Origin: Candidatus Versatilivorator sp.
GTDB taxonomy: Bacteria; Acidobacteriota; Terriglobia; Versatilivoradales; Versatilivoraceae
NCBI GenBank assembly: GCA_965207735.1
Contig: OZ242296.1
Coordinates: forward strand, 3,904,001-3,968,000
Reading direction: 5' to 3'
DNA: 64,000 nucleotides
Shown: positions 29,282 through 48,112 of the stretch, one piece after another
How the letters are laid out: every line of letters starts with the position of its first letter
Position numbering within the stretch: the stretch's first letter is position 1
Notes under the pieces: generated by a model
Seen by the model: only the letters and a program-made list of their open reading frames with translations
The model's database searches: none
Told to the model about the DNA's origin: nothing
Translations under genes and position numbers: made by a program

Positions 29282-29524
29282 ATGAGAACAATCGGCGCCT
29301 CCGCGGCCAGAACCCATTTTTCCGCGCTTCTCGATGAAGTCGCCGGCGGAGAAACCATCATCATCACCAGGCGCGGACGCCCGGTGGCTAGGTTGACACC
29401 GTCGGAAGCGCCCGCCCGTCGAAGCGCTATTGCCGCAGCCGCGACCCTGCGCGACTTGTGCAAACGTGTCGGGCGGGCGACAACCGAAGAGATTCTTCAG
29501 TTGCGAAACGAAGGGCGGCGATGA
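29282..29524 (+). CDS. Phd/YefM family antitoxin, no intact toxin partner
   Basis: ARTHFSALLDEV, IIITRRGRPVARL; overlapping downstream ATG gives only 23 codons. Confidence 0.85.
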   Translation: MRTIGASAARTHFSALLDEVAGGETIIITRRGRPVARLTPSEAPARRSAIAAAATLRDLCKRVGRATTEEILQLRNEGRR

Positions 29525-29589
29525 AGGCCTCGATACCGGATGGTTTCGTCACCAAGTGCTGCAAGACGAGAGACCACTATTTTCGGCCT

Positions 29590-29628
29590 TGACATGTGGA
29601 GAACATGTAAGTAGGTTTTTCACATGTC
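29590..29628. promoter_or_regulatory. Putative RHH operator of the downstream TA pair
   Basis: Three ACATGT palindromes, the outer two forming GACATGTG/CACATGTC. Confidence 0.5.
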
Positions 29629-29854
29629 CAAGATGATTCAGTTGCGGAATGTCCCCGATGACCTTCACCGGGTTCTCAAGTCCCGGGCTGCGTTGGCCGG
29701 AAAATCTCTGTCGGACTATCTGATTGCGGAGATTCGGCGTCATGCCGAACGCCCAACCATGGAGGAACTTCGTCGACGGCTCCTGGCTCGAACCCGGGTA
29801 CATCCAACTGTGCGGCCGGCCCAAATGATCCGGGAAGAACGGGACAGGCGGTGA
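29624..29854 (+). CDS. FitA-like ribbon-helix-helix antitoxin
   Basis: IQLRNVPDDLHRVLKSRAA..SLSDYL; GTGA overlap with PIN gene. Confidence 0.85.
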   Translation: MSKMIQLRNVPDDLHRVLKSRAALAGKSLSDYLIAEIRRHAERPTMEELRRRLLARTRVHPTVRPAQMIREERDRR

Positions 29855-30258
29855 TCGTTGCAGACGCTTCGGCCGTCCTTGAGCTGCTCTTGGGAACAAC
29901 TGCCGCGTTGGATATTCAGAGGCGGCTTCTCGATGGCGAAGAGTCTCTGCATGCGCCCCATCTGATTGATCTCGAGATAGCTCAGGTCCTGCAGCGGTAC
30001 GTACTGATTGGGGAACTGACGTCGCAACGAGGGAAGCAGGCGCTAACCGACTTGGCGGATCTTCCGATTATTCGCTACCCGCATGACTTGTTTCTCTCGC
30101 GCATTTGGGCACTTCGTCACAACGTCACCGCCTACGATGCAGCCTACCTGGCTCTCGCAGAATCGCTTCCGGCGCCATTGATCACCTGTGACGCCCGATT
30201 GGCCGCCACACACGGTCATCGGGCGACCGTTGAGCTCGTCCGGACCGGTCGCGCTTGA
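29851..30258 (+). CDS. vapC: VapC/PIN toxin
   Basis: IVADASA, LIDLE, AYDAAYLALA, LITCD. Confidence 0.9.
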   Translation: MIVADASAVLELLLGTTAALDIQRRLLDGEESLHAPHLIDLEIAQVLQRYVLIGELTSQRGKQALTDLADLPIIRYPHDLFLSRIWALRHNVTAYDAAYLALAESLPAPLITCDARLAATHGHRATVELVRTGRA

Positions 30259-30282
30259 GCATTCACCACTCAACCTCACGGA

Positions 30283-30322
30283 TGGTGTGTTGTCATATTG
30301 GTGTATTGATGCTATGGTGTGT
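30283..30322. promoter_or_regulatory. Putative RHH operator array
   Basis: TGGTGT at 30283, 30299 and 30315 (16 bp period) upstream of an RHH gene. Confidence 0.45.
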
Positions 30323-30347
30323 CAGTTACTGAATCGGAGTCCCTACC

Positions 30348-30593
30348 ATGCCTCGCTTGACCATTAGTCTGCCTGACCGGACACATCGGGCACTGAAGGA
30401 AACTGCGGCCCGACAGAATCGTTCCATGGGTTCAATCATCGAGGAGAGCCTGGAATTGAGAGGTGTACGGCCCTACGACACTGCCAGGGAGATCGTTGCC
30501 AGGGCGCGAGCGAAGTCCGGATTGAGCGCTGACGAGGCAATGGTCCTGGCAGTTGAGGAAACGAGAAGATTTCGCGACGAACCATCGGGCTGA
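30348..30593 (+). CDS. Ribbon-helix-helix (CopG-like) antitoxin
   Basis: RLTISLPDRTHRALKETAA..SMGSIIEE. Confidence 0.75.
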   Translation: MPRLTISLPDRTHRALKETAARQNRSMGSIIEESLELRGVRPYDTAREIVARARAKSGLSADEAMVLAVEETRRFRDEPSG

Positions 30594-30635
30594 TCGGCGC
30601 CAACCGCCAGATCGTGGAGGTGTGGAAGAGAGCCG

Positions 30636-31073
30636 ATGACGCTCCAGCCTTGTATTGTGGATACCAACGTCATCGTCTCGGGCGTGATCGGTGCAGACCC
30701 GCAGAGCCCCCCTGCTCTGATCCTGGAGGCCATGCTTGATGGCACGCTCCTCTATCTGATGTCAGACGCCCTTCTCAACGAGTATTCGTCAGTGTTGCGG
30801 CGCCCGGGTCTCGTCCGACTGCACGGACTGACAGACGACGAAATCGACCGACTCCTTGCCGACCTGGTCGCCAACGCCGTGTGGCGCGAGCCTGTCGCCG
30901 GCGGCAATGCGCCCAGCGCGGGGGACGTCCACCTGTGGGCGTTGCTCGCGACCCATCCGCAGACACAACTGGTCACGGGTGACCGGCTTCTTGTCGAGAA
31001 CCCTCCAACCGGTTCTTCTTTGATCTCCCCCCGCCATTTCGTGGATACGGGTTTTTCCCCGAAGACTACCTGA
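30636..31073 (+). CDS. PIN-domain toxin
   Basis: IVDTNVIVSG, LLNEY, LVTGD. Confidence 0.85.
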   Translation: MTLQPCIVDTNVIVSGVIGADPQSPPALILEAMLDGTLLYLMSDALLNEYSSVLRRPGLVRLHGLTDDEIDRLLADLVANAVWREPVAGGNAPSAGDVHLWALLATHPQTQLVTGDRLLVENPPTGSSLISPRHFVDTGFSPKTT

Positions 31074-31308: not shown

Positions 31309-32610
31309 TCAGTACTCCAACCTCGCCGGCGCTCCGCCGTTCTTGCTTGCCCGGATGTCGTAGCAGTTGAGCACGCCCTGGTTGCGGATGTAGAGTCTGC
31401 CGCCGCTCACCACCGGGTGGGCCCAACTGGGCCATCCCTGGTCGGCCACCTCGAAGCGGCCTTTCTCCCGGTACTCTTCGGTCGTAGCTTCGGCCAGGCC
31501 CACCACGTTCTTTTCGCTGAAGAGGTAGAGATGGCCGTCGGCATAGATGACCGATCCCTTGCCCACGCTGCGGTCCTTCCACATCACCTTGCCGGTCTCG
31601 AACTCCATGCAGGTGAGGATGGCGTTGGAGAACCCGTAGAGGTAGCCGTCGACCAGGACCACCCCGCCGTGGTGGTTCATCATTTCGCGGTTGAAGTAGA
31701 CCTCCTCGGCATCCATGGAGCCGTTGTCGGCCTTGAGCTGCAGCAAGGCGCAGCCGGTGCCGTAGGCGGAGCTGTAGAAAGCCCGGTCCCGGTATAGGAC
31801 CGGAGTGGTGACGTTGGCGGTCCGGTTGGCCACCGGCTCATAGCGCCACAACAGGTGCCCGTCATCGGCCCTCAGCCCCACGGCCGCGGCGGCGGTAAAG
31901 GCCAGCAGGGTGCGGATGCCCTGGACTTCAGCCACCACGCAGGAGGAGTAGCCGGCCCGGTCGCTGAGCTCCTTGCTGGTCCAAATGGTTTTTCCGGTAT
32001 TCTTGTCCAGAGCCACCAGGCTGGCCTGATCGCCGCCGGGCATCACGATCAGCCGGTCGCCGTCCACCAGAGGCGACTCGCTGATGAGCCACTTGGGATT
32101 CTCGCCCTTGAAATCCTTGAGGATGTTGCGGTGCCACAAGGTCTTGCCGTCGCCGGCCTGCAGGCAGGCCAGGTCGCCGTTTTCGGTCAGCACGTAAATG
32201 CGGTCCTCGTGGATGGTGGGAGTGCCCCGGGGACCGGGGCCGCGGCCATGGTCCAATCGATCCCCCAGGGACACGGTCCAGAGCGTCCGGCCGCTGCTTT
32301 CCTCGAGACAATACAGGGTGCTGTCGTTTTCGCGGGTGCCCTGGACGAAGATCCGGCCTCCCTGGATGGCCACGCTCCCATAGCCCTCTCCCAGGTCGGA
32401 AGTGGACCAGACCAGAGCGGGGCCGCCGGCCGGCCACTGCCCAAGCAATCCGGTTTCGGTGGAAAGGCCGGTTCTTTCCGGTCCCCGCCACTGGGGCCAC
32501 AGGCCCTCGGGAAAGGAATGGTTCGATTGGGGAAGCTGTACCTGGCTGCAGGAAGCCAAAACAATGACGGTGGCAATCAGTGCTGCGGTCGGGAGCCTCT
32601 TGTGGCTCAT
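31309..32610 (-). CDS. PQQ-like beta-propeller repeat protein (putative lipoprotein), copy 1
   Basis: WPQWRGP, repeated G..LW blades, WAHPVVSGGRLYIR, LASC lipobox-like. Confidence 0.85.
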   Translation of the reverse strand: MSHKRLPTAALIATVIVLASCSQVQLPQSNHSFPEGLWPQWRGPERTGLSTETGLLGQWPAGGPALVWSTSDLGEGYGSVAIQGGRIFVQGTRENDSTLYCLEESSGRTLWTVSLGDRLDHGRGPGPRGTPTIHEDRIYVLTENGDLACLQAGDGKTLWHRNILKDFKGENPKWLISESPLVDGDRLIVMPGGDQASLVALDKNTGKTIWTSKELSDRAGYSSCVVAEVQGIRTLLAFTAAAAVGLRADDGHLLWRYEPVANRTANVTTPVLYRDRAFYSSAYGTGCALLQLKADNGSMDAEEVYFNREMMNHHGGVVLVDGYLYGFSNAILTCMEFETGKVMWKDRSVGKGSVIYADGHLYLFSEKNVVGLAEATTEEYREKGRFEVADQGWPSWAHPVVSGGRLYIRNQGVLNCYDIRASKNGGAPARLEY

Positions 32611-32657
32611 GGCGATTCTCCTTTCGCTCGGGAGGAAGCAGGGGACGGGAGGAAGCA

Positions 32658-32773
32658 GGGGACGTTGTTGAATTACTGGAATAACTTGTAAAGAGCGCGT
32701 AGGTGCCGTTATCGAACAAAGGCAATTCAGGAGCGGCCGATCAAAGTAATTCCAGCAATTCAACAACGTCCCC
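32658..32773. mobile_element. 116 bp MITE-like element, copy 2
   Basis: Same IR and length as 2576-2691; GGGAGGAAGCAGGGGAC is tandemly duplicated at its left end. Confidence 0.8.
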
Positions 32774-32832
32774 AGCGCTGTACGACGATTATTGCAAAAG
32801 GCTCCAAGATGAAAGGGTGAGTAGAATTGGAC

Positions 32833-32875
32833 TTGACAATGTCACATAATTTTATTATATAAATGACATTGGAGG
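32833..32875 (+). promoter_or_regulatory. Sigma70-type promoter with overlapping inverted repeat and RBS
   Basis: TTGACA (32833), 17 bp, TATATA; CAATGTCA-N19-TGACATTG; GGAGG. Confidence 0.7.
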
Positions 32876-32881
32876 ATTCAA

Positions 32882-33451
32882 ATGAGCGACGGGCCACACA
32901 GAAGCCTACCGATGTCGTGGGGCTGGAGGCGGTTCGTGGAGCGCATCTATATCGAAGCGTTCAGTCATGACGAAGAACGCAATGCTCTGGTAACGGCGCT
33001 GGAACAGGATTGGCGCAAAGGGAATATGGAAGGACTAGTCCAGAGAGTTGGTGAGACTCTGCGCGACCGCCAAACCCATTTCTTCTGCGATCAAGGCGCT
33101 GAAAAACTCAAGTTACTTCGAAGAGAAGCAGCTTTGTCCCCACTTCAGTATGCATTTCTCGACTTTTTGGACAACGCTGTGGCCGCAGGGCATTCAGGAG
33201 ATGGTGCAATAATCGAGGCGGCTTATCAGACCCTTTCCGATCTCGCGGCGCGCCGCACACGCCAAGTCGAGGAACACTGTCTACGAAAACTGGGGCAAAG
33301 ACGCGGCACCTATTTCAGACAACGCATCGAAGGCGCAATTAATGAATTGGAAACTGCGGCGCCCGCCCACCGTCTTCTCGGCATCGATCAGAATGAGCCC
33401 CCACTAACGCTTGCAAAGAAGACGGGTCTGGACGACGGAGTGCGCCTCTAA
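32882..33451 (+). CDS. Hypothetical protein, first gene of the QueC-like operon
   Basis: 189 aa, strong RBS, TAATG coupling to the next gene. Confidence 0.8.
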   Translation: MSDGPHRSLPMSWGWRRFVERIYIEAFSHDEERNALVTALEQDWRKGNMEGLVQRVGETLRDRQTHFFCDQGAEKLKLLRREAALSPLQYAFLDFLDNAVAAGHSGDGAIIEAAYQTLSDLAARRTRQVEEHCLRKLGQRRGTYFRQRIEGAINELETAAPAHRLLGIDQNEPPLTLAKKTGLDDGVRL

Positions 33452-34875
33452 TGGAGAATGCAACAGCATTGAACACCACTTTGCCGACACATCGGGTCCA
33501 TGTCGTGGAACAGGGAGCGTCTGCCCGTCGCCATTGGGTCAGCTGCGAGATCGGCGAGAACCTCAAGTTCGACATGGGTGGTCTCCAAAGCTATTGCCTC
33601 GCCAATTGGGATGCACGGGTTTACGACGCGTTTGTCGTTGCTGCGGCGGTGCAGTTTTGCGATCACACGAAGCGTCGACCTTCGGCTGAGTGGGGACGCA
33701 ATTTTGTCTTGCGAATTCCGGTTCATGATCCGGGGCACTGGAAGTCGGCGGATGTCTCGATTCCCCTGCATGACGCCTTGAGGTTGCTCACCTGCGATCA
33801 GTGGCAGATTACCTTCGAGACAAGGAAGACCGCTGCATCGGTTCCCCGCTCCGGTAACTTCAATGTGCCTGACGACACCTCGGTAATCATTCCCTTCAGC
33901 GACGGTCTTGATTCACATGCAGTGGCTGGTCTCATGAAGTTGGAACATGCTTACAACGTGATCCGAGTACGGCTTGGGCAGAAATTGTGGCACGGAAACC
34001 AAAACGGCAGTCGATTGCCGCAATTCACCTCCGTTCCGTACCGTATAGGATATGGCAAGAATCGCGCCGTTGAAATGAGCGGGAGGTCACGTGGTTTCAA
34101 GTTCGCGGTTCTCAGCGGCGTCGCAGCCTATTTGTCGGGAGCCAAAGATGTCTTTATGCCCGAAAGTGGCCAGGGTGCCCTGGGACCGAGTCTTGTTCCG
34201 GTTGGTCAAGAGTACGAAGACTACCGAAATCACCCCTTGTTTACGGATCTAATTGCGACTTTCCTGTCTGCTCTTCTCGGTCATACGGTTCGTTTTGCCT
34301 ATCCCCGTCTCTGGCACACCAAGGCGGAGACCCTTGCCGAATTCGTGGCCAAATGTCCGGAGGACGTACGGAGTTGGGATCAAACCCGGTCCTGCTGGCA
34401 GGGTCAAAGGCATGTGTCGGTGTCCGGAAAGATGCGCCAGTGCGGCACCTGTGCCGCCTGTATGCTCAGGCGCATGAGCGTCCACGCTGCAGGTCTCTCG
34501 GAATGTAAACAATTATATGTCTGGGAGGATCTGACCACGATGCGATATGAAGACGGTGCCGCTCCTACATTTGAAAAAAGAAAGCCGAAAGGCGCCATGT
34601 ATGAGTACGCGATTGCAGGAACGCTTCATCTCGATCATTTGGCAGGTATCCTGCATTCCCGTGCAAACCAGGCCACGCTCTTTCGACAGGTCTTTCTGTT
34701 GAGCAGATCCCTTGGACGTCCTAAAGGGGAAATTCGAGCAAAACTGGAACGGTTGATAAGGAAACACACGGATGAGTGGCAGGGTTTTGTCGAGTCCTTG
34801 GGGTCGGCGTCATTTGTAACTCAGTGGGTTGAAAGGAGAGATAAACATGTCTCGCCCGGAGGTGAATGTCGTTGA
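33451..34875 (+). CDS. QueC-like PP-loop ATPase with N-terminal extension
   Basis: FSDGLDS PP-loop variant, TKAE, SCW..CGTCAAC zinc site; 474 aa, about twice canonical QueC. Confidence 0.85.
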   Translation: MENATALNTTLPTHRVHVVEQGASARRHWVSCEIGENLKFDMGGLQSYCLANWDARVYDAFVVAAAVQFCDHTKRRPSAEWGRNFVLRIPVHDPGHWKSADVSIPLHDALRLLTCDQWQITFETRKTAASVPRSGNFNVPDDTSVIIPFSDGLDSHAVAGLMKLEHAYNVIRVRLGQKLWHGNQNGSRLPQFTSVPYRIGYGKNRAVEMSGRSRGFKFAVLSGVAAYLSGAKDVFMPESGQGALGPSLVPVGQEYEDYRNHPLFTDLIATFLSALLGHTVRFAYPRLWHTKAETLAEFVAKCPEDVRSWDQTRSCWQGQRHVSVSGKMRQCGTCAACMLRRMSVHAAGLSECKQLYVWEDLTTMRYEDGAAPTFEKRKPKGAMYEYAIAGTLHLDHLAGILHSRANQATLFRQVFLLSRSLGRPKGEIRAKLERLIRKHTDEWQGFVESLGSASFVTQWVERRDKHVSPGGECR

Positions 34876-36025
34876 TGTCGGCCGGCGTTTGCGAATCGCG
34901 CGTGAGGCAGCCGGCATGACCCAGGCGCAGGTGGCCGCCAACATCAATGCGGCCCGCACGACGCTGGTTGCCATAGAGAAAGGTCAGCGCACGGTTCGGT
35001 TTGCTGAACTTCGGCCCTTGGCCCGGCTGTACGGCACGTCGGTCAATGCGCTGCTGCGGCGAGAATCCGTATACACCGATCTCGTGCCTCGATTTCGCAA
35101 GCTCCCTGGCAGCGACGACGAGGCGTCCGCCGAGGCGTGCCGGCTGCTGGCAGACCTCGTTCGAGCCGAAGTGGAACTTGAAAACCTTCTCGGGATCACC
35201 CATCCACGAAACTATCCTCAGGAACGAGTGTTGCTGCCCGGGGACGTGCGCACCCAGGCCGAAAATGACGCGACGGAACTTCGGCAGAAACTCGGGCTGG
35301 GATTGGCGCCGGTCCGAGACCTGATGAGTCTGCTGGAACTCGACCTTGGGATTCGCCTTTACGTTCGGCGGCTTGCTCCTCAGGTGTCTGGACTGTTCGC
35401 TTTTGATGAGCAGGTTGGCGCATGCATGCTGCTGAATGCCAGCCATCCGCGCGGACGGAGGATGCAGACCGCGGCGCATGAGCTCGGTCACCTTGTTTCA
35501 AACCGCCGATTCCCGGACGTTCAGTACCGCGATGGAGGTGAGGGCTCACGTGAGGAGAGATACGCGGACGCTTTCGGCCGCGCTTTTCTGACGCCGGCGC
35601 GGACGGTGATGCAGAGATTCAGAGAGGTGACGCAGGGCGCTTTCCAACTGACGCGCCGGCACGTCATTGTGCTCGCTTACACCTTCGGCGTATCGCGTGA
35701 AGCACTGGTTCGGCGGCTTGAAGAACTCAACCTAACGAAAGAGGGCACCTGGGATTGGTTTCAGGCGAACGGTAGCATCACGGACGAACAGGCTCGACAG
35801 GTCCTTGGCGATCTCGAGGGCACGGATAGGGACACAATAGATGCAACGCGGCCCACGACGCTGCGCTTGAGTCTGCTCGCTGCTGAAGCATGGCGGCAAG
35901 AACTGCTCAGCGAGGGACAGCTTGCCCGCCTCTTCCATCTTGACCGTATTCAGTTGCGCGAAATTCTGGATGGAGTGGAAACGGAAGGAGTTGAGGCGGA
36001 TGGTGCGCCAAAACTGCCTGCATGA
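34847..36025 (+). CDS. XRE-HTH plus ImmA/IrrE zinc metallopeptidase
   Basis: LRIAREAAGMTQAQVA HTH; TAAHELGH; EERYADAFGRAFLTP. Confidence 0.9.
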   Translation: MSRPEVNVVDVGRRLRIAREAAGMTQAQVAANINAARTTLVAIEKGQRTVRFAELRPLARLYGTSVNALLRRESVYTDLVPRFRKLPGSDDEASAEACRLLADLVRAEVELENLLGITHPRNYPQERVLLPGDVRTQAENDATELRQKLGLGLAPVRDLMSLLELDLGIRLYVRRLAPQVSGLFAFDEQVGACMLLNASHPRGRRMQTAAHELGHLVSNRRFPDVQYRDGGEGSREERYADAFGRAFLTPARTVMQRFREVTQGAFQLTRRHVIVLAYTFGVSREALVRRLEELNLTKEGTWDWFQANGSITDEQARQVLGDLEGTDRDTIDATRPTTLRLSLLAAEAWRQELLSEGQLARLFHLDRIQLREILDGVETEGVEADGAPKLPA

Positions 36026-36626
36026 TCGGACCGTTCCCGTCATCGCAGACACGAGCGTGGTGATTAATCTGAATGCCACCCAATGTGCCGAAACGATTCT
36101 GGCCGCTTTGCCCAATCCATTTCTCGTTGTGTCGGAAGTGGTGCTGGAGCTTGAGAGCGGCCTGCAAACCGGCCGAAACGACGCTGCCGCGCTCAAGGAA
36201 TGGCGTACTTCGGGGCGAGTGCAAATCGTGACGCTTGGGGACACCGGGGCGCAGCATTTCTTCAACCTCGTTTCCGGCCCCGCCGCTCAAACACTTGATG
36301 ATGGGGAAGCCGCAACCATCGCCCATGCCTTGGAAACCAAACCCCCTGCCATCCCCCTTATAGACGAACGCAAGGCAAACCGCATCTGCGCTGACCGATT
36401 CGCTCACCTTGTAACGGGCAGCACCGTTGATCTCTTGGCTCAAGACGATGTTCAGGCAACACTTGGGACCGCCCGGCTCGCCGATGCGGTTTTCGATGCT
36501 CTACTCGGTGGCCGCATGCGAGTTCTACCGCATCACTTGAACTGGGTCGTCAACTTGATTGGCCCGGAGCGTGCGAGACAGAGTGAGTCTTTGCCGAGAT
36601 CCATTCGTTCCGGTTCACCCAATTGA
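36000..36626 (+). CDS. PIN-like domain protein
   Basis: VIADTSVVINL, LDDGEAATIA, LIDERKA; overlaps the peptidase stop. Confidence 0.75.
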   Translation: MVRQNCLHDRTVPVIADTSVVINLNATQCAETILAALPNPFLVVSEVVLELESGLQTGRNDAAALKEWRTSGRVQIVTLGDTGAQHFFNLVSGPAAQTLDDGEAATIAHALETKPPAIPLIDERKANRICADRFAHLVTGSTVDLLAQDDVQATLGTARLADAVFDALLGGRMRVLPHHLNWVVNLIGPERARQSESLPRSIRSGSPN

Positions 36627-37530
36627 TTAGCCGGACAGCGGTCTTATATTCAATGTGGCCGCCGGATAGATGCAATAAAGAAGAAAGAGAGGAAGAGTGA
36701 CTAAAGACACCGCTCCCATCCGCGGACTCGCTACTGTGGCTCTCCTAAAGACGAATTTCGACAAGGGGAAAGACCATCTTGGGATGTTTCTTCCCTTTAT
36801 CGTCGATTCAGTGGCGAATCTTCCACGTGATGACTTTTCTGTCCATGAATTGAAGGAATGCCTCTATGACAGGCATGGGCTTTCTGTTCCACAAGGAACT
36901 CTTCGAGTTCTGATCACCCGAGCGACAAGGAAGGGGTTTATTCGACGTGAAGAGGGTCGGTACTTTAGGCTAACAAAGGTCCGTAAGGTTCCGGACCTCA
37001 AGCCTCAACAGGACTCAGTAATGCGGGAGCATGAGGAGCTTGCAGAGGCCTTTCGAAGTTACGCAGCATCGTGGAAACTCGATTTGAAGACTCATGCTGA
37101 AGCCCTTTCGCTCCTTATATCATTCCTGGCAGAGAACGAAATGGCGGTACTGCTCCATGATGACTCGACAGGGATTGAGACCATTACCCCGCACAGAACA
37201 CAACGCATTGTTGCGAGATTCTTTCGGAAAACTCTCGGTGACAATTCCCGCTTGACTCGAATTCTGGAACAATTAATTCAAGGCTATGTTCTCCAAAACG
37301 CGCTTCTCTTGAAAGATATTAGTCAGGCAAGCAGGCCATTTCAAAACTTGGAAGTCTTTCTTGATTCGAATTGCGTACTGCGCGCGCTTGGTCTAGAGGG
37401 TGGTCCCAACAAGATAGCCACGCGTGAAGCGCTCTCAATCTTGAAGACAATGCATGCTCGGCTGACAGTCTTTCATTCTACCATCGATGAAATTAGACGA
37501 ATTCTAAGCCTTTACGAGCACAGGATAGGC

Positions 37531-37728
37531 CGAGCAAAATCTGCGGCAGTTGGGAATCGGGCTGAAACAGTTTCCCAAGCGACAGAAGCAGTTTACGCTC
37601 ACTGAACGATCCCTGACTCTAAAACTCAAGAGACCCAATGAATCTGAAACGGAACCTCGAATTGTTCACGACGTCGATTGCATCGCGGCTATTCTTACGT
37701 TCCGAAGGGGAATGGAACCAAGAAGCTA
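37531..37728 (+). repeat. 198 bp non-tandem duplicate of 37833-38030
   Basis: Identical by eye, offset 302 bp; TAGGC at 37526-37530 and 37727-37731. Confidence 0.9.
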
Positions 37729-38195
37729 GGCACGACAGCAGGTCGTAAGAGCCTTCGTCCAGGAGCACTTGCACAGCATTTTTTCACGAATAACTATTCA
37801 CCAGCAGACGTGCGACAGGCGAGCGCTTTAGTCGAGCAAAATCTGCGGCAGTTGGGAATCGGGCTGAAACAGTTTCCCAAGCGACAGAAGCAGTTTACGC
37901 TCACTGAACGATCCCTGACTCTAAAACTCAAGAGACCCAATGAATCTGAAACGGAACCTCGAATTGTTCACGACGTCGATTGCATCGCGGCTATTCTTAC
38001 GTTCCGAAGGGGAATGGAACCAAGAAGCTATGATAATGCAGGTGCTGTTTTCTTAACAACGAACAACAGGCTTGTAGCTACAGTAAGCGAGTGGATGACA
38101 GAGGAAGGAGTCGACGGACTCCCACCGATCGTACACCAAATACGCCTGACTAACTTCGCTTGGCTAAAAAAGCCCGCAGCAGCTATTAAGCTAAA

Positions 38196-39682
38196 GAGCC
38201 TTTTGCAAAATTCGGAATCGGGCATGACATTGGGCTGGCAACAGTGATGTTCCGGCGGTGACTACCCAGCTGCAAAGACCCTTTTGAAGGAAAAAGCCCG
38301 AATCTGATGGCCGGATGGCCAGCGGTCGCCGGACGCAGGCACAGCTTACCCTCTCCCGGCCTTGAGGCGGGCGAACCTGCTGTGCGGTTGGGGGTGGCAA
38401 CCCGGTCTTCAGAGCGTCAGGCGCATCAACTGATCCACCGTCAGGGCCAGAATGCCGAACATCAGGTGGCACCTCACCTTGTCGGGGCCGCGAACCCTCA
38501 CCTGCCTCCCGCCAAACTCCTCCTTGAGCCGTCCGTTGACCCGCTCCACCGTCGAGCGTTCCCGGTAGCGCCGCGCCTCGGGAGTCACTTGGCCGATACA
38601 GCGCCGGGCCAGTGCCTCCCGCTTCCGCTCGGCTTTCAAGGTAGCTCTTCGGCGGGGGTTGACGTCAATAATCGGCACATGCCCCAGCTTCTCACTGAAG
38701 GCCCGGATCTCCGGCGCATCGTAGGCGCTGTCCATCAAGTCGTAGAGACTCTCGACCCGCCTTGCCGTCAGCGTCGCCAGCGGAATGGCTGCCTGAGAGT
38801 CATGCACCGAGGCCGAGGTCAGCAGACAACTGACCGGAATCCCGCCGTCAATGGCGTCGAGGTGTAGCTTGTAGCCGGTCCAGCTCTCCTGATGCCCCTT
38901 GGCGTTGCGCTTGACGCCGATGTCGCAGGCCTTGGGCAACTCCTTCAACATTTCCTCCAGCGTCATCGACCCCTGCCGCTCCAGCCGGCTCAACCGCTTG
39001 GGCCGTCGCTCGCCCTTCGGCGGCCGGCCCCGCCGGCGTTTCCGCTTGGCCTCCGGCGCAGCCTTGGCCGCTGGCTTTTCCCGTCCCGCAATCGCCGTCG
39101 AGTCCCTCGACACATGCCCCGCCAAGTGGCCCTTCAGCGTCTCCTCCAGCAATGCCTCGTGCAAACGCCCCGGCAGGTCGCTCTCAGCGAATTCCGCAAA
39201 GGCCCGCGAGAAGGTCGACTCGCTCGGTACCTCCCACGCCCTCTCCCAGCCGCACAGCCGCCGCAGCCTCCCCTCACTCCTCAGCCGCTCCACCAATCCC
39301 CGCGTGGTCGCCACCTCCAGCATCGACTTCGCCAGATAGGCTCGCGCCAGCACTGCCCGATCCTCCAGCGGCCGGCCACGCCAGCCCCGACTGTAAGGCA
39401 GCAACTCCTCCACCCGCACCAACTCCAATACCTGCACCAGCCGCTGGTAACGCTCTCCCAGAGGCCCCAAAACTTCCTCCAGCAGGGGAAACAGCTCTCG
39501 TTGAAACCGGAACCAGTGTCGTGATAGGGTTTCCCTAAGGGGCAAGTTCCACCTCCGTTCATCATGTGGTTCAGACACCTTCATGATACAACAGACAGTG
39601 GTCTTGCCCCTCCTTCCACCTGCCCTCCTTGATCTTTCCCCACGTGAAAATTCCCGCTATCTGCGAATTTTGCAAAAGGCTC
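38196..39682 (-). mobile_element. IS element (IS5/IS1182-like DDE)
   Basis: 19 bp IR GAGCCTTTTGCAAAATTCG; TAAA direct repeat. Confidence 0.88.
38409..39584 (-). CDS. DDE transposase (IS5/IS1182-like)
   Basis: PSESTFSR, SRDSTAI, GYKLH, MDSAYD, RSTVERVNGRLK. Confidence 0.88.
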   Translation of the reverse strand: MKVSEPHDERRWNLPLRETLSRHWFRFQRELFPLLEEVLGPLGERYQRLVQVLELVRVEELLPYSRGWRGRPLEDRAVLARAYLAKSMLEVATTRGLVERLRSEGRLRRLCGWERAWEVPSESTFSRAFAEFAESDLPGRLHEALLEETLKGHLAGHVSRDSTAIAGREKPAAKAAPEAKRKRRRGRPPKGERRPKRLSRLERQGSMTLEEMLKELPKACDIGVKRNAKGHQESWTGYKLHLDAIDGGIPVSCLLTSASVHDSQAAIPLATLTARRVESLYDLMDSAYDAPEIRAFSEKLGHVPIIDVNPRRRATLKAERKREALARRCIGQVTPEARRYRERSTVERVNGRLKEEFGGRQVRVRGPDKVRCHLMFGILALTVDQLMRLTL

Positions 39683-40425
39683 TAAAGACAAACGAATTGA
39701 TAGCTCTTTGCACAGCTGCGCTTAAACCACGCCGGGAGATCTGGAATAAGTTCACAAGACATCTACAGCAACTACAAGAACAAGATGAAATCACTTCTGA
39801 CGAAGCCGTCGCTATCTTAGCCTCGAGTTACTTGAACAAGTATCTCTCCGATGCTGAAGACGAGGATGAAACAGACACAGGCTCGATCATTGAGATAATT
39901 GACCGGGTGAAAGGGAAATATCGGGCCGATGCTGAAGCCAGGATCCTTGAAGCGAAACGTCAAGCGCATGCAGAGGGCGAGAAATATCGCGCCGATGCGG
40001 AAACCAGAGTCCTTGAAGCGAAACGTCAAGCACATTCAGAAGGTGAGAAATCTCGTCAGCTTGAACTTCAGGTCCAAGGGTTCGTTGGCCGTATAGCGAC
40101 AATGGTTTCCCTGCTCACCATAAGTGTGGTAGGAGTTGCGATCCTAGTAGGTCTAGCCCTCTGCTTGCCGGGACTATTCGACCTATGGCCAGGTCCAAGT
40201 TGGACTGGATGGGTCATGATCGCCGTATTTGGGGTTTTTACGGCATTAAGTTTGTTTCGAGGAACCGCGTTGAAAAATGTATTCCTCAAACTCCAGTCAA
40301 CAATAGCTCAGAGGCTCGCAACGTACATTCACTTGCGGTAATCCTTGGGAAGACGGTTAACGCAAGGCGGCTAGCGTCTACGGGATGCGGAGAGGAATAT
40401 CGTTTTCCGGCGGTCCCCGGTGTCG

Positions 40426-41765
40426 CTAATGGTCCATACAACACGCCTCAACTAAGTTCCCCCGCACTTTGCCGTCTTTGATAAGGCTCGCTTCCAACTG
40501 GTCGCAGATCGCCATTAGCTCATCCAGTTTGGCGATAATGCGGTGTTGCTCGGCGAGGGGTGGAAGAGGAAACACATAGGCTGCGAGGCCCTTGCCGGTG
40601 AAATGTTTGATACCGGTTCCGGTGAAATACTCGGCCAAACGTCCGTCATCGGCACTCGCCCGGAGCGCCCTCACAAAATAATCGCTAGCTACGAGGTTCA
40701 CAAAACGAACACGATGAATCGCTTTCTGAAAGTAGATATCGGTTTCGCGGGTGTCCCACACCGCCGCTCGACCAGGCTCGCCTCCCTCGCATATCAACAC
40801 ATCGCCGAATCGAAGCGCGAACTCTGGAAGCTCCGAATCTTCGAATCGCATCTCCAGCAGGTTGGATAGATCGAAGTCGAACCATCTCACGTTGATGTTG
40901 CGGAGATATTTGTGAGGCGTTCCTTTGTTTTTGGACTTGTCGAGCATCTTACCGAGGCGGGAGTCAGCTACCGCGCCCACCTTCACCCAAGTCCACGATT
41001 CGGGAAGCTCAAATGAGCCAGTGCGTAGAACAGGAATCTTTTTGCGCTTCAGCAATTGCGACGCCGGCTCATCGTTTGGGTCCTGCGGCACCAGTTTGCC
41101 GCGTACAGCCAAGTTAAGGATGGTCTGGCGCAGGGCCTTGATCTGGTCGGGACGGGTGGTGATCGGACCAAGGCTGTTGACGGCAAAGGTGACATCATGC
41201 CGGAATGTCGCCGGGTCGGGGTCAGGTGCGTTGAGGCGAGCGAGGCTTGCCGTCGCCAGCCGATCCCGCGTCGCCTCCCGGTCAGCCCGCGCTGCCTCCA
41301 GCCGGTCGCAGAGCGCCATCAGTTCTTCGACTTTGGCGACGATGCGGTGTTGTTCGGCAAGGGGTGGGAGCATCACCGGAATTTCTAGCGCTTTGGCTTG
41401 GTTAAGCTTTGACCTCGTTGCACCAACCACTCGCCCTGAGTAATCAAAGACATTCAAATAGTGGACCAAGTACGCGTTGGAAACGAGGACACCGCGAAAG
41501 ACATGGGCATGGTTATTCACCCAAGACGTGCCAGCGATCAGATAGGCTTTAGGCCGTAGGGAATCGAAAAAAGGTACGCCGTCTTCGCCGAGTAGTACAA
41601 GCTCCTCATCGAAAATGTATTCGTCGATCCAACCTTGCTGTTGTGTCGCACCAAAGTATGGAAACAGTTGTGAATGGGACTTCCCCGCAATCCTCCGTTT
41701 GCGCTCAGTTCCGTTTACGGGCTTTCGCATGTAGTCCAAACACACAGCAACCAGTCCGAGTCTAG
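40426..41765 (-). pseudogene. hsdS: Type I RM specificity subunit, C-terminal fragment
   Basis: Two PPLAEQHRI repeats, LAVRGKLVPQDPNDEPAS; joins in frame to 45921-46191. Confidence 0.9.
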
Positions 41766-43345
41766 GAGTCTGCGCCGCAGGACGATTTCGGAAAGTTCAA
41801 GAGCGAGAGGCTACTGCGCAAGGCCGGTTCCAAGGAGTGCTTGGGAGCCACTTGGGCGTTGATAGAGTCTCAAGCGTCCTGTGGGCTCCCACAATGGGCG
41901 GTTGAGGACCTCCGTGGCCCTGGGTATTGGGTGGAAATCCCTTGCTTCAGGCCGCCATCAACGCACTCATCCTCTTGATGTTGAGGGCCAGACACACCAA
42001 GTCCCACTCCCCCTGCACTGATTGCAAGCCCCGCAGACTGAACCGTCGGAATCCCAGCCCCTCCTTGATCCACCCATGAGGGGCTTCGGCAATCCACTTC
42101 CTCCGCCGATACTCCACCTGACCGGCTAGGCTGGCCAGCTTCTTCCTCATACGACTCTTGGCCGGATGCTTCCTGGGATCGATCTCTACCGCCCGCTTCC
42201 CCTCGCGCCCCAGCGCAACATAACCGTCCACTCCTCTCTCTTCCAGGGCCTGCAAGTCCTCCTCATTGCAGTAGCCCGCATCCGCCAGCACCTGTTTCGG
42301 TATCTCCTGGAAGCTCTCCTCCACCTCCTCCAGCAACTCCATCATCTGCCCCTGATCGCTCGCCTGCGCCGTTACCTCGGTGGCCACAATGATCTGGTGC
42401 TCTCCGTCCACCGCCACCTGCGCGTTGTAGCATTGCTGGAACCCCTCGGTGGAAGTCTTCATGATCCGGCTTTCCGGATCGGTGAAATTACTCTGCGCCT
42501 TCTCCTCCGGTTCTCCGTAGGCCCGCTTGTAGGGCCGTCGTGCTTTCGGGTTGCGGTCCTGTCCCGGTTTGCGCCCCCGCTCCTCATCGGCCTCCCGCTG
42601 GGCCGCCTCCAGCCGCTGCTTGGCCGCCTCGATCGCCGCCAGCCGGTCCTCCCGCCGCCGCAACTCCTCGGGCAACTCATCCCCACGCCGGTCTTCCCCG
42701 TACCGCTCATCTTCCTCCCGGTCCTCCCGCCGCGCCTTCTTCAACAACTCATGGATCTCTGCCTTCAGTTGCCGCTCCCGCTCCTTCATCCGACCATAGC
42801 TCATCGCCTTGCGCCGGCTCGCGTTCGCCCGCACCTTCGTCCCGTCGATCCCCAATCGCCCCAACCCCACCATCCCCATCTCCCGCGCCAAGCTCACCAC
42901 CTGTACGAACAGCTGCTTGAAGTCCTTCAAATGCCGGCGGCGAAACTCGCACAACGTCCGATGCTGCGGAAAGTTCCCCGCCGCCAGCATCCGAAACGCC
43001 ACGTCTTCCTCCAGCTTCCTCGCGATCTTGCGCGACGAGAACACCCCTGTCGCATAGGCGTAAATCAACACCTTCACCATCATCCGCGGCTCGTAGGGCG
43101 AGTTGCGCCTCCCGTCCTCTTCATAGGGCCGGTAAAACGCTCTCAACTCCAGCCCATCCACCAACTCACTCACCTGATGGGCCAAGTGCCCTTCCGGTAC
43201 CCACTCCCCCAGGTCCGGCGGCAACATCAACAGTTGCTTCGGCTGATACGGGCGAAACCTTGTCCCCATCCACCACCTCCTATGATGTCTCTAAGCCCGT
43301 TATTGTATCATTCAGCCCTGCCCGGGTTTTCTGCGGCGCAGACTC
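41766..43345 (-). mobile_element. IS1182 family element
   Basis: IR GAGTCTGCGCCGCAG; CTAG on both sides. Confidence 0.88.
41947..43269 (-). CDS. IS1182 family transposase
   Basis: YEPRMMVKVLIYAY, IDGTKVRANAS, TDPESRIM, LADAGY. Confidence 0.92.
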   Translation of the reverse strand: MGTRFRPYQPKQLLMLPPDLGEWVPEGHLAHQVSELVDGLELRAFYRPYEEDGRRNSPYEPRMMVKVLIYAYATGVFSSRKIARKLEEDVAFRMLAAGNFPQHRTLCEFRRRHLKDFKQLFVQVVSLAREMGMVGLGRLGIDGTKVRANASRRKAMSYGRMKERERQLKAEIHELLKKARREDREEDERYGEDRRGDELPEELRRREDRLAAIEAAKQRLEAAQREADEERGRKPGQDRNPKARRPYKRAYGEPEEKAQSNFTDPESRIMKTSTEGFQQCYNAQVAVDGEHQIIVATEVTAQASDQGQMMELLEEVEESFQEIPKQVLADAGYCNEEDLQALEERGVDGYVALGREGKRAVEIDPRKHPAKSRMRKKLASLAGQVEYRRRKWIAEAPHGWIKEGLGFRRFSLRGLQSVQGEWDLVCLALNIKRMSALMAA

Positions 43346-43362
43346 CTAGCCCGCATTTCTCA

Positions 43363-44231
43363 GTGCGCCATGGAAAGGCGCCTTCTTCCAACGGGTGCGA
43401 AACCCGTCCAACAACTGTCGCTCCGGTTGGTAGCAGCCAGGGCGGATCATGGAGGTAACGATATGGTCTGAAGCCCTCTGGTGTCAAAGGGCCGCTTAAG
43501 GCGGTTCAGCGAGCATGCGGGCCGGAACGCGAGTGAACGTCGAGCAGGCCTCGAAACGGGCAATGCGGGGGCCGACCCACCTGAGAAATGGGGAAGGCCG
43601 AAGACGGAGGGGGAAGCGAGCGACGCGGGCACCCCTTTGGACCCGCCGGGGTAGTGGCGCTGGCACGCATGGAAGGGGAAGAAGGCAGCAACATGGGAAG
43701 CCCTGTGGGTGGTGAGGCACGCACCGAACCGGAAGCTCGCGAGAGTCAGTCTAGGCCGACAGGGTGGCGGAGAGGCCTGTAGTACCGGAGAAGCCGGGTA
43801 ATACCGGTGGAGGGAAGGGGCCTCAGGTGAGGAGCGGTGACCGAAGGGGGAAGGGTCCCGGGAGTGGCGAAAGCCTGAAACCCCGACCAAAAAAGGGCCG
43901 GAGACTCCGGAAGCATCACATGCAAAAGTGAAAGGGTCGTCGGAGGAGGACGGCGTCGTCAGGGCATCAACAGGCCTGGCGGCAACCCGGGAGCGGAAGT
44001 GGATGGAGTGGGGGACGGGTGCCAATCCCATAGGAGTCGTCCACGGATGCGAGCGGGGACCTGTGTGCGAGACGCATGATCCCACTGGAGAGCCGAGATG
44101 CGGGAAAACCGCACGTCCGGTTCGGAGAGCGGGGACTGGAAACGTGATAAGGGAGCCGGACTGAGGCCCGAAGCGAAAGCGACGGAATAGCCACCGGACC
44201 CTATAGTCAACGCGCCAGTCCTCGACTCTAC
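43363..44231 (+). ncRNA. ORF-less group II intron (869 nt)
   Basis: 5' GTGCG; domain V GAGCCGAGATGCGGGAAAACCGCACGTCCGGTTC near 44090; long domain VI ending CTCGACTCTAC; no RT ORF. Confidence 0.9.
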
Positions 44232-44453
44232 CCAGAGTTCGCACAGGAGCGGTAAAAGGGGCCATGGAGGCATTTGAGGCCGAGTTTAACAACGTTGGTG
44301 GCTGGATCGGTAGGCAAAGGCCAACAGCGGAGGCTTCTGAGGCTCTCCGAGGAACCTCAGGCGGCATTTTCCCTCGAAAACAGCGACACCTCTGCCATCG
44401 GGCCTGGTGGCCGCGTCTTCAAGGGCCAGGAGTGACGGTCGGGTCAGGGCACC

Positions 44454-45821
44454 TCAGGGCGGCAGGTGAGCCCAAGCGATGCGGAACTCCCTCTGGTAAG
44501 GACATCCGGAAGCCATGGCGACCTTGATGCGACGGACCGAGATGGTGACCTGAGCGCCGATCTTGAGCAGTTTGAGTCTGATGGAACCGACGGTGGCCCG
44601 GGCCAGGCAGGTGGATTGCAGCGCCCGCCGGCGCAAGCCCTCCACCAGCACATAGGCGAAAGAGGTCATCAGGAGCCGGAGCTGATTCGCCCGGAAGGAG
44701 TGGGTGGAGGTGCGATCGGCAAACAGGTCGAGTTGCTGCTCCTTGATGCGGTTTTCCATCTCACCGCGGGCACAGTAGATCTTCTCATAGAGGAACTGGG
44801 CGGGGTAGTCCTGGACCGACAGAGAGGTGACGACGAAGCGGGGGTTGGGGCCGCGGGGCAGGACCTCGGCTTTGGCGACCAGGCGGCGCTCGTGGGACCA
44901 GCTCTTGTGAGTGCGGTAGGAGAGGTCGGTGAAGATCCGGGCGGGCTGCTGTTGCTGGTCTGAGAGGGCCTGGGCCTGAGCCAACTCGGGGGCGATGGCG
45001 TCTTGGAGGCGGGAGTTGCGGGCCAGGCCGAAGAGATAGTCGACCTGATGCTGCTCACACCACCCCATCAGCTCCTCACGGGCAAAGCCGGAGTCGGCCC
45101 GCAGCAGGATCTTGACCTGAGGCCAGACACGCCGTAGGCGGGAGACGATGCGCTGGACCTGCTCCAGAGCGCCGGCGGAGGCATCGATGTTGGCGGGTCT
45201 GAGCAGGGCCGAGAGCAGATGGCGGCCCGAGAAGATGTAGAGGGGCAGGTAGCAGTAGCCTCGGTAGTAGCCGTGGAAGAAGCGGTCCTCTTGTTCCCCG
45301 TGGAGGGGATCGTCAGTGGCGTCGAGGTCGAGGATGATCTCATCGGGGGGTTGGGGATGGGCTTGCAGAAACAGTTTCACCAGGAGGGCTTGCAAGGCCT
45401 CGGGGTCGTGGTCAATCTTGTGGTAGCGGGTGGGGCCTTGGGTGGGGGCGTGTTCGAGTCGGTTGAGGGTGCTCTTGCCTGCCAGGGGAGGCGAGTCGCC
45501 ACGACGGCCTTTCTCTGAAAACAAGGCCATGAGGGGATCGTGACGGAGTTGGTCGTGGTCGATGAGATCCTCGTAGCCGAGGGCGATGCCACGGATGCGC
45601 TGAGCGATGAGGGTGCGCAGGCTGTATTGGGTCCGCTTGGGGTCGCGGTGATCGGTGAAACAGTCGGCCACCTGGTCGGAGAGAGATAAGCCCCGATCCA
45701 CCCGGCGCAACAGCAGGGAGCCGGCATCGGAAGTGATGGGACCGCCGTCGAAATCAGCCACCACGCGGCGGCGGCCGTGGGGTTCAAACTCCAGGGGTTT
45801 GGTGTTACACTGTGTCGGCAT
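44454..45821 (-). CDS. IS1380 family transposase
   Basis: FDGGPITSDAG, LDLDATDD, RADSGF, RGEMENRIKE. Confidence 0.93.
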   Translation of the reverse strand: MPTQCNTKPLEFEPHGRRRVVADFDGGPITSDAGSLLLRRVDRGLSLSDQVADCFTDHRDPKRTQYSLRTLIAQRIRGIALGYEDLIDHDQLRHDPLMALFSEKGRRGDSPPLAGKSTLNRLEHAPTQGPTRYHKIDHDPEALQALLVKLFLQAHPQPPDEIILDLDATDDPLHGEQEDRFFHGYYRGYCYLPLYIFSGRHLLSALLRPANIDASAGALEQVQRIVSRLRRVWPQVKILLRADSGFAREELMGWCEQHQVDYLFGLARNSRLQDAIAPELAQAQALSDQQQQPARIFTDLSYRTHKSWSHERRLVAKAEVLPRGPNPRFVVTSLSVQDYPAQFLYEKIYCARGEMENRIKEQQLDLFADRTSTHSFRANQLRLLMTSFAYVLVEGLRRRALQSTCLARATVGSIRLKLLKIGAQVTISVRRIKVAMASGCPYQREFRIAWAHLPP

Positions 45822-45920
45822 CGGTTCTCCTTTAAGAATCTGGTTAACTCCTTAGACAAGAGTATTTTACCAGATTCCGAGAACCGATGCTTCCTACCTC
45901 TGGTGAGAAATGCGGGCTAG

Positions 45921-46191
45921 TTGGGAACCAGCCACTTGGCAGGTCAACCGCTTGCTGTGTTTCCTTAAGCCGGGCCACGGGCTTTTGCTTCCCAATCTCC
46001 CCCGCCTTCACCAACCGCGCTTTCTCTGCCGTGATTCGCTTCAGCAGTTCCGAGGCCGGTTCATCGTTCGGGTCCTGTGGCAGCAGTTTGCCGCGTACCG
46101 CCAGGTCGAGAATGAAGCGGCGCAGGCGATGAACGGATTCGGGAGACTGAATCAGTCGATCGAAATCATCGAAAAGAAAGTCGATACTCAT
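45921..46191 (-). pseudogene. hsdS: Type I RM specificity subunit, N-terminal fragment
   Basis: LRRFILDLAVRGKLLPQDPNDEPAS..LPSGW, cut at CTAG. Confidence 0.88.
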
Positions 46192-46238
46192 CGCTCGGCT
46201 CTGACGAACAGCACGCATCTCGTCAGCAGTCACCTTGT

Positions 46239-46595
46239 TTATTCTTCGGGCGGACCCAGTTCGGCAAGCAGGGTTTGCGCGATTTGGCGCAGTTGCGGCA
46301 GGTGGTTTTTGGCGTCGTCCCATACAGGTTCGGGGTTAACGCTGGAATAGCCGTGGATCAGCAGGTTGCGGAAGTCGATTACCTTGCGTTTCCGAGGCAC
46401 CCGTTCGGCAAGTTCGGGGTTGGATGGGCTCAGAATGTTCAGTGCTTCGCCAATGATTTCGAACTTCCGTTCGACGGCCGCTTGGGTACGGGAATCACTC
46501 GCGTAGGCCGCTTGATCCATACCCTCTGTGAAGCGCTTAATGGCCTCGCCCGCTTGTTCGACGTCCGCCAGCAAGACGCGAGGATCAGGATGCAT
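46239..46595 (-). CDS. HEPN/DUF86 RNase toxin (HepT-like)
   Basis: AVERKFEIIGEA, RNLLIHGY (RxxxxH). Confidence 0.9.
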   Translation of the reverse strand: MHPDPRVLLADVEQAGEAIKRFTEGMDQAAYASDSRTQAAVERKFEIIGEALNILSPSNPELAERVPRKRKVIDFRNLLIHGYSSVNPEPVWDDAKNHLPQLRQIAQTLLAELGPPEE

Positions 46596-46896: not shown

Positions 46897-46996
46897 GGCA
46901 AATTCTCAGCGATTGTTCCGGTTGGCGGATAATGGCGGATAACGGTTTGTTTGGCAAGAGCTTCCACCACCCCAGCGGGGCCTCCGACAATGCCGT

Positions 46997-47418: not shown

Positions 47419-47518
47419 CGAAAAATCCTCCATAGCTCGATTTGTGGAGGAGTGAAGGAATAATCAACCAGAGCCCGCAGCAGCGCAAGCCCCGGACGGC
47501 TCAAGGTCAACATCATCC

Positions 47519-48110: not shown

Positions 48111-48112
48111 GT

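Follow-up and report, generated by a model that had tools for sequence, protein, structure and literature searches.

Within the 64,000-nucleotide stretch of Candidatus Versatilivorator sp. contig OZ242296.1 analyzed here (positions 3,904,001 to 3,968,000 of assembly GCA_965207735.1; hereafter, the window) lies a conserved and widespread operon of four overlapping genes. They encode a small helical protein (ORF1), a QatC-like enzyme (ORF2), a helix-turn-helix (HTH) protein with a zinc peptidase domain (ORF3) and a protein with a predicted PIN fold (ORF4). By analogy with characterized relatives, we consider it fairly probable that the operon is an inducible anti-phage unit in which a single ORF3 chain would serve as repressor, antitoxin and single-stranded DNA (ssDNA) sensor. 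By cleaving itself, ORF3 would free the PIN RNase and induce a separable QatBC-like core, ORF1–ORF2, acting in parallel. The four-gene operon is likely an anti-phage system not described before. Its elements are:

32833–32869, plus strand: promoter/operator, with TTGACA at 32833–38, TGTCA at 32840–44 and TGACAT at 32864–69
32882–33451, plus strand: ORF1, 189 amino acids (aa), N-terminus MSDGPH
33451–34875, plus strand: ORF2, 474 aa, overlapping ORF1 by one base (TAATG)
34847–36025, plus strand: ORF3, 392 aa, likely start ATG 34847, overlapping ORF2
36000–36626, plus strand: ORF4, 208 aa, likely start ATG 36000, overlapping ORF3

The list of open reading frames begins ORF4 at TTG 35922; we prefer the ATG at 36000. 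A preliminary description of this DNA had reported four overlapping, co-oriented genes in a defense island. The genes were confirmed at these positions, and the operon is flanked by VapBC-type genes (29282–31073) on one side and a type I restriction–modification (R-M) locus on the other, with transposases also among the surrounding window genes.

We asked how widely the four-gene unit is conserved. Among the best 80 of 496 metagenome stretches matching the ORF2 profile, several of which are near-copies, ORF1 was present in 77, ORF3 in 76, ORF4 in 59 and all four genes in 58. Their order and strand were constant, and each absent gene falls beyond a contig end. All loci of sufficient length share this order, which lies far outside what chance would give. 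ORF1 or ORF3 is broken in six of these loci (L043, L055, L056, L061, L076 and L077). In PLSDB, ORF2 had 25 matches (34–54% identity), all on alphaproteobacterial plasmids. The same 25 plasmids account for 25/25 ORF3 matches above 50% identity and 25/26 ORF4 matches, at coordinates adjacent to ORF2, and all four genes were seen in each of the six plasmids inspected. The metagenome loci and plasmids thus bear out the earlier suggestion of a conserved four-gene unit. Near-identical loci also occur in metagenome-assembled genomes of Terriglobia, one of them Candidatus Versatilivorator. No ORF2 relatives were found in the phage collection or in IMG/VR. Metatranscriptome contigs of close relatives span approximately 32890–36626 (four runs, one study); such contigs cannot show transcription and were not used.

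The second half of the operon resembles a known type of toxin–antitoxin (TA) module. As first noted, ORF3 joins an XRE-type HTH to an HExxH peptidase: Pfam assigns HTH_3/HTH_31 and Peptidase_M78, the peptidase being of the IrrE/M78 type, and a small C-terminal helical domain follows. An FR pair (F83-R84), the HExxH motif (HELGH; H211-E212-x-x-H215) and the third zinc ligand E237 are each present in 66/66 ORF3 sequences. Among PDB chains ORF3 matches 9vzy best, which comes from the VapBC52 paper, and the FR pairs of the two proteins coincide in the alignment (E = 4.9e-6 over the full sequence; taken singly, neither stretch passes). Pairs of an HTH-peptidase and a PIN protein were predicted earlier as TA modules (PMC2701414, PMC5499597), and in VapBC52 ssDNA triggers the antitoxin to cleave away its HTH close to a conserved FR motif (PMC13273310). 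The VapC52 PIN toxin cleaves tRNA and, when overexpressed, protects against phage D29 (PMC13273310). In PADLOC, ORF3 matches capP (E = 1.6e-13), capH (E = 1.1e-5) and, best, RmrA models (E = 4.8e-26). RosmerTA had been cited as the precedent for the HTH-peptidase. The closest model for ORF3–ORF4 is instead VapBC52, and identity with RosmerTA was rejected: no RmrT match was found by PADLOC in ORF1, ORF2 or ORF4, and the toxin is a PIN protein.

The window copy of ORF4 has no Pfam match, and no PDB chain is similar to it in sequence. Its structural model, in agreement with the original PIN-like assignment, has the VapC/PIN fold (predicted local distance difference test, pLDDT, 93.7), and the top Foldseek rows are VapC/PIN proteins (probability 1.0, E = 0.003 or weaker). 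The acidic active-site residues D17, E50, D100, D101, E103 and D122/E123 are invariant among 58 sequences (alignment A3), and PADLOC matches the protein to PDC-S70 (E = 7e-8). By analogy, ORF4 is likely an RNase toxin and ORF3 likely a VapB52-like repressor/antitoxin.

The region upstream of the operon holds an element absent from the preliminary description. The –35-like TTGACA and the neighboring TGTCA form a palindrome, TTGACA-W-TGTCA, about 48 bases before the ORF1 start, and a third half-site, TGACAT, lies about 17 bases before it, directly ahead of the ribosome-binding site GGAGG (32871–75). We collected 73 upstream regions by an xDG-type start pattern, leaving 66 after removal of duplicates. 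TGACA-N-TGTCA, with at most one mismatch, occurs in 65 of them, and half-sites number 196 as opposed to a mean of 14 (maximum 31) in 500 shuffles. The left arm of the palindrome equals the –35 consensus; the other two half-sites are not accounted for by a –35 box. A –10-like YAnnnT with a spacer of 16–18 is seen in 40/64 promoters, a count with no control set, and the operon promoter is not listed in a sigma-70 scan of the window. The operator is also retained ahead of most loci that consist of ORF3–ORF4 only. By analogy, the HTH of ORF3 is likely what binds there.

We then considered the first half of the operon. ORF2 carries, as originally stated, an SDGLDS P-loop (S150-D-G-L-D-S155) and intact zinc cysteines (315/331/334/337). 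It matches QatC in PADLOC (E = 6.5e-24) and QatC of PDB entry 9vlk (E = 9e-25), scores 97 bits against NCBIfam QatC (NF041925), under the cut-off of 280, and only 20 bits against the canonical QueC model TIGR00364, under 150. ORF2 was also considered as a housekeeping QueC; this was rejected, as a canonical QueC scoring over the cut-off is encoded elsewhere in the host genome. In alignment A2, ORF2 has the QatC-type extensions and the cluster-2 motifs listed in PMC13329287, with a difference in motif spacing (R-x7-W is x4 in ORF2). In the substrate loop, D257-Y-R259-N-H-P, residues D257 and R259 do not vary across 118 sequences. HMMER places D-x-R on the T-x-T of QatC, and MAFFT places R259 on the conserved Arg of QatC with a one-residue gap; in neither register is the QatC T-x-T or the QueC Y-x-D kept. 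In a 24-row ORF2 tree, enzymes whose partners begin MSDG, MTDG or MRDG group together in a single clade (100/100), to which the MPDG enzymes are a less well supported sister (89/86); eight canonical QatC rows lie outside (one of these, L108, comes from an unpublished genome, and no claim depends on it). Judged by sequence, ORF2 is a QatC-clade PP-loop ATP pyrophosphatase and not a QueC.

ORF1 belongs to a large family (967 representatives at 50% identity, profile E ≤ 0.001). In alignment A1 the N-terminal M-x-D-G, L9 and W15 are fixed. An inspection of N-termini in the ORF2-selected loci agreed with the claim that this end of the small protein is conserved: 66/68 distinct ORF1 sequences begin MSDG, one MCDG and one MSEG. 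In more distant operons, ORF1 begins MTDG (L088–L090), MPDG (L096, L097) or MRDG (L087 and L093, where the start is an inferred GTG that keeps W15 in register), and all of these operons retain ORF3–ORF4. Since residue 2 may be Ser, Thr, Cys, Pro or Arg across operons, what stays constant in ORF1, as read from the alignments, is the Asp3-Gly4 pair and its distance from the start, not Ser2, the residue previously taken for the defining acceptor.

Modeling supports the pairing of the two proteins. The predicted complex of ORF2 with ORF1 lacking its Met, a prediction that the preliminary description had called for, scored 0.87, compared with 0.14 for the best of three controls; the mark applied is reached by 116/157 solved complexes and by 2/215 mismatched pairs. 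The runs share at least 66% of contacts, with partner pLDDT of at least 70. The predicted interface comprises ORF2 residues 249–255 and 379–416, with ORF1 residues 7, 10 and 12 in confident contact. QatC binds QatB through the same loop and C-terminal helices (PMC13279940). ORF1 is therefore likely, on the strength of the model, to be the partner of the QueC-like enzyme. Of the proposal that ORF1 is a modified partner, the partnership thus fared well; the deazaguanine part did not, as discussed below.

ORF1 itself is all-helical in its model (pLDDT 79; low-confidence linker 171–181). No family match was found in Pfam, PADLOC, NCBIfam or PDB sequences, and no fold match in Foldseek PDB, viral folds or the ESM Atlas, an absence that does not show a new fold. 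VIA-align returned generic helical bundles only (best Z 7.5), and QatB is absent among the fold matches listed. Profile comparisons were weak throughout: E = 0.09 against QatB in hhalign (15-row QatB alignment), 0.04 against the MGH partners of a second QatC-like system described below (N-terminal L9-P10-W15 region only) and 0.006 against the MPDG partners (two rows). At the other end of ORF1, the tail GLDDGV is conserved. Because it partly encodes the ribosome-binding site of ORF2, a chemistry based on this tail was set aside; the codon of G186 is GGA or GGG in 56/65 sequences, as opposed to 296/710 for internal Gly codons.

The relation between the two halves becomes apparent from loci in which they are separated. 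The host genus sample (14 genomes) has ten ORF3 copies in eight genomes; four stand beside a whole ORF2 and six do not. In three of the six, which we inspected, the promoter, ORF3 (with FR and HELGH) and the beginning of ORF4 remain intact, and ORF1–ORF2 has been lost through internal deletions with two distinct end points; the second copy in L002 makes a fourth. Among 400 sampled Acidobacteriota genomes, 15 have ORF3: four with the whole operon, one with ORF2 split by an insertion sequence (IS) and ten without an intact pair, six of which retain remnants of ORF1 or ORF2. Two exceptions among these ten count against a clean story, one having a PIN match of just 60 residues and the other lacking the HExxH pattern. 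On a 38-row ORF3 tree, the presence or absence of the pair requires at least six changes. Given this persistence of ORF3–ORF4, the idea that the pair is a needed gate on the peptidase–PIN toxin is not supported. In the other direction, ORF1–ORF2 of this lineage was not seen without ORF3–ORF4 in metagenome loci, plasmids or distant operons, and the MPDG, MRDG and MSDG/MTDG groups are nested alike in the trees of ORF2 and ORF3. Thus, the two modules have long traveled together, and ORF3–ORF4 is viable alone. A separate kind of rearrangement is seen in L133 and L134 (G170, G148), where a deletion fuses the first ~30 ORF1 codons in frame to ORF3 and leaves the operator intact.

Taken together, these features suggest the following mechanism. 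The HTH of ORF3 would bind the TGACA/TGTCA operator and repress all four genes, while ORF3 would also bind ORF4. Upon phage replication or DNA damage, ssDNA would activate the ORF3 zinc peptidase, which would sever the HTH from the rest of the chain at the FR linker. The freed PIN RNase would cause growth arrest or abortive infection, probably via tRNA cleavage, and cleavage of ORF3 would raise the expression of ORF1–ORF2. ORF2 would bind ORF1 by the QatC-type loop and C-terminal helices and might perform an ATP-dependent ligation at the N-terminal x-Asp-Gly of ORF1, with a substrate other than carboxy-deazaguanine (CDG). Gene order, conservation, motifs, the operator motif and the survival of ORF3–ORF4 without the pair are observed, and the ORF1–ORF2 complex and the PIN fold are predictions; DNA binding, ssDNA sensing, self-cleavage, toxicity, defense and the ORF2 chemistry are assigned by analogy. 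For ssDNA activation, given the weak match to VapB52 and the absent cysteine switch, analogy is the sole ground. Both modules have anti-phage systems as their nearest characterized relatives (PMC13279940, PMC13273310).

Several points weigh against this mechanism. Its support is wholly computational. ORF1 has no significant similarity to QatB by PADLOC, PDB sequences or hhalign, residues 2–6 of ORF1 are not among the confident contacts of the predicted complex, and the passing score of that complex may reflect likeness to solved QatBC. The match of ORF3 to 9vzy is weak; moreover, the cysteine switch of VapB52 is missing, with Cys in the switch loop of 3/66 sequences and a conserved Glu/Asp224 instead. 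The accessible part of the VapBC52 account (PMC13273310) does not mention binding of VapB52 to its own promoter. That the pair was never seen without ORF3–ORF4 is a tighter tie than pure cargo needs. Finally, PADLOC-family genes within 4.2 kb of the operon in 15 of 21 long loci (28/108 ORFs) speak for defense, but this count has no background control, and the other six loci have no such neighbor.

The tight tie speaks for a single pathway, a possible though unlikely arrangement, the main alternative to the mechanism above and the positive form of the gate first proposed. ORF1–ORF2 would be an upstream phage sensor: upon infection ORF2 would modify ORF1, and modified ORF1 would switch on the ORF3 peptidase or free the PIN protein, so that loss of the pair would leave a harmless TA module responding to DNA damage only. 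The shared history of the ORF2 and ORF3 trees fits, ORF3 without a cysteine switch may need another trigger, and in the Qat system QatB uses its tail to bind the nuclease QatD (PMC13639016). However, deletion loci keep the FR and HExxH of ORF3 intact, as if the module worked alone, and QatBC protects against some phages without the other Qat genes (PMC13279940).

It is decidedly unlikely that the operon has no part in phage defense, with ORF3–ORF4 an addiction or stress TA module stabilizing plasmids and islands and ORF1–ORF2 a passenger with another stress function. The 25 plasmids, the transposases, integrases and conjugation genes that adjoin the loci, the survival of ORF3–ORF4 beyond ORF1–ORF2 and the long-standing proposal of HTH-peptidase/PIN pairs as TA modules are all in keeping with such a role. 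That the relatives of both modules act against phages argues the opposite, as do defense neighbors that include R-M, BREX, AbiE, Gabija-type and Shedu genes.

The chemistry of ORF2 was considered separately. In type IV CBASS (a system for anti-phage signaling by cyclic oligonucleotides), Cap9 reportedly attaches carboxy-deazaguanine to CdnD. A corresponding reaction, in which ORF2 would take CDG from the host queuosine pathway and join it to the free Ser2 amine of ORF1, is very unlikely. The intact P-loop and zinc site of ORF2, the fixed N-terminal register of ORF1 and the canonical QueC of the host would allow it. An NDG peptide was moreover found on QatB despite the T-x-T pocket, though the signal was at the peptide level and none was seen by intact mass (PMC13639016). 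Nevertheless, ORF2 lacks the Y-x-D motif, known acceptors begin M-G, QatC shows no activity toward CDG in vitro (PMC13376578, PMC13639016), and the reaction of QatC on QatB is itself still an open question (PMC13279940, PMC13376578). Related operons begin M-P-D-G or M-R-D-G, and by the rule given in PMC13279940 the initiator Met would be kept when residue 2 is Arg. The deazaguanylation put forward in the preliminary description is thus disfavored; acylation of the N-terminal amine by another acid, or activation of Asp3, fits the data better.

Asp-Gly sequences are linked to aspartimide formation. A bolder idea, distinctly unlikely as it stands, is that ORF2 might found a class of QueC-fold protein ligases needing no nucleobase. 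It would adenylate the Asp3 side chain of ORF1, which the invariant Arg259 would hold, and join it to an amine, either inside ORF1 (giving a lactam or aspartimide at Asp-Gly) or of a different protein from host or phage (isopeptide tagging), the whole being wired to an ssDNA-sensing, self-cleaving TA switch. If so, QatC-like enzymes would be enzyme–partner pairs with clade-specific N-terminal codes (MGTS, MGH, MGSQ, MxDG) deployed in different defense modules.

That ORF1–ORF2 is an antidote holding the peptidase–PIN module off, for which gene order and tight linkage alone speak, is close to untenable and was rejected because ORF3–ORF4 persists after repeated pair deletion, clean deletions in near-complete genomes leaving the promoter, ORF3 and ORF4 intact.

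The wider window offers additional context. The small TA genes at 29282–31073 encode, by Pfam, a Phd protein, two ribbon-helix-helix antitoxins and two PIN proteins. The type I R-M locus (EcoAI family, minus strand, 40426–53580) has hsdR, hsdM and an hsdS that is fragmented around at least two IS elements. Just 3′ of the operon, at 36697–40341, a large gene is apparently split into three ORFs (302, 189 and 252 aa) by a frame change and a transposase insertion; its first piece has a PIN-like FLDSN motif, and none of the pieces has a family match in Pfam, PADLOC or NCBIfam. An element of ~117 bp with terminal inverted repeats (GGGGACGTT...AACGTCCCC), likely a miniature inverted-repeat transposable element, is present in two copies, at 2575–2692 and, just upstream of the operon, at 32657–32774. 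Two similar PQQ-type beta-propeller genes (Pfam) on the same strand, at 31309–32766 and 54399–55763, bracket the island. The reported lack of queD, queE, TGT, QatA ATPase, TatD and CD-NTase genes nearby agrees with our scan, in which no Pfam match to QueD, QueE, TGT, KAP NTPase, TatD or CD-NTase was found in 63 window ORFs (19 + 44; the remaining listed ORFs and those under ~150 aa were mostly unscanned).

Around relatives of the operon, a divergent Fic-family gene (PADLOC SoFic) lies just upstream in 5/21 long loci (L033:5158–6324, L052:5143–6252, L064:1903–3015, L074:1138–1929 and L078:5154–6278), and in L006 one is found farther away. Near one distant operon copy (L085:470–2999), multiubiquitin, E2 and ThiF genes are annotated; ORFs near another (L120:1882–3601) resemble this ubiquitin-like set.

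The operon would provide a new handle on the function of QatC-type enzymes. Three structure papers of 2026 leave open how QatC acts on QatB and by what route phage is arrested, and this lineage is a natural experiment in which the pocket and the partner N-terminus have changed together and QatA and QatD are gone. The readable operator and the likely ssDNA trigger would make the pair inducible on demand and its product searchable by mass spectrometry. The VapBC52-type module would be seen as carrier and likely regulator of other defense genes, with natural deletion variants as controls.

How, then, does the operon compare with known systems? The view that it is not a named system stands insofar as no description of the four-gene set was found in the literature searched, mostly outside subscription journals and supplements, where neighborhood tables of PMC13329287 could list the ORF2 clade; no model of PADLOC (2023 version) covers ORF1. 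It needs qualifying in that both halves resemble known ones, QatBC and VapBC52.

With QatABCD, the operon shares the QatC architecture of ORF2 (N- and C-terminal extensions, SxGxDS, DxW, RxRxxxF, ExG, HP, PxxxxTK and CGxCxxCxxRR), a small helical partner with a fixed N-terminus encoded just upstream of the enzyme, and the predicted interface. It differs in having no QatA (KAP NTPase) or QatD (TatD), the pair being flanked instead by the promoter and ORF3–ORF4. The pocket is D-Y-R-N-H-P in ORF2 as opposed to T-R-T-T-H-P in QatC, and ORF1 has 189 aa and M-x-D-G where QatB has MGTS, with no long disordered tail or detectable QatB homology. ORF2 falls far below the NCBIfam QatC cut-off and in a clade of its own, and the pair is coupled to an HTH-peptidase and a PIN protein. 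Two other QatC-like arrangements were noticed along the way. In one, unnamed, a 260-aa partner is followed by a QatC-like enzyme of 590–700 aa that has the TRTTHP pocket and carries an additional region at its C-terminus. The partner starts MGH in 111/115 cases, has L9-P10-W15 in 106 and is weakly QatB-like (E = 5e-4); no QatA or QatD was seen, and recombinase-like genes often adjoin (L121–L126 in G244, G318, G190, G022, G335 and G158; example L099:495–3294). In the other (L127:5872–8132, G239), a QatC-like enzyme with the pocket loop STRHAHP has a 258-aa MGSQ partner, again with no QatA or QatD seen.

Type IV CBASS likewise combines a QueC-family enzyme with a neighboring partner whose N-terminus is conserved. 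Cap9, however, is a minimal QueC with Y-x-D, which ORF2 lacks, and the system needs a CD-NTase and the TGT-like Cap10, neither of which was found by Pfam or PADLOC in the scanned window ORFs. RosmerTA shares only the RmrA-like ORF3. The CapP and CapH pair (10.64898/2026.05.16.725639), an IrrE-family peptidase and an HTH repressor that likely control a defense operon upon ssDNA, offers a further parallel, but in ORF3 both roles would fall to one chain, encoded inside the operon and coupled to a PIN toxin, and ORF3 has no GAF match. Closest to ORF3–ORF4 is VapBC52 (Rv2515c–Rv2514c, Mycobacterium tuberculosis; PMC13273310), together with the predicted Xre-COG2856/PIN class of TA modules (PMC2701414, PMC5499597). 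As far as described there, it has the same succession of HTH, FR linker, HExxH/E peptidase and C-terminal helical domain at similar length, with an overlapping PIN gene whose acidic residues are intact, and it exists as a stand-alone two-gene unit. ORF3, by comparison, has no cysteine switch, the ORF4 PIN is ~60 residues longer, a conserved operator is evident and the QueC-like pair usually lies upstream. The operon would work like QatBC plus VapBC52, yet does not qualify as QatABCD, as type IV CBASS or as RosmerTA.

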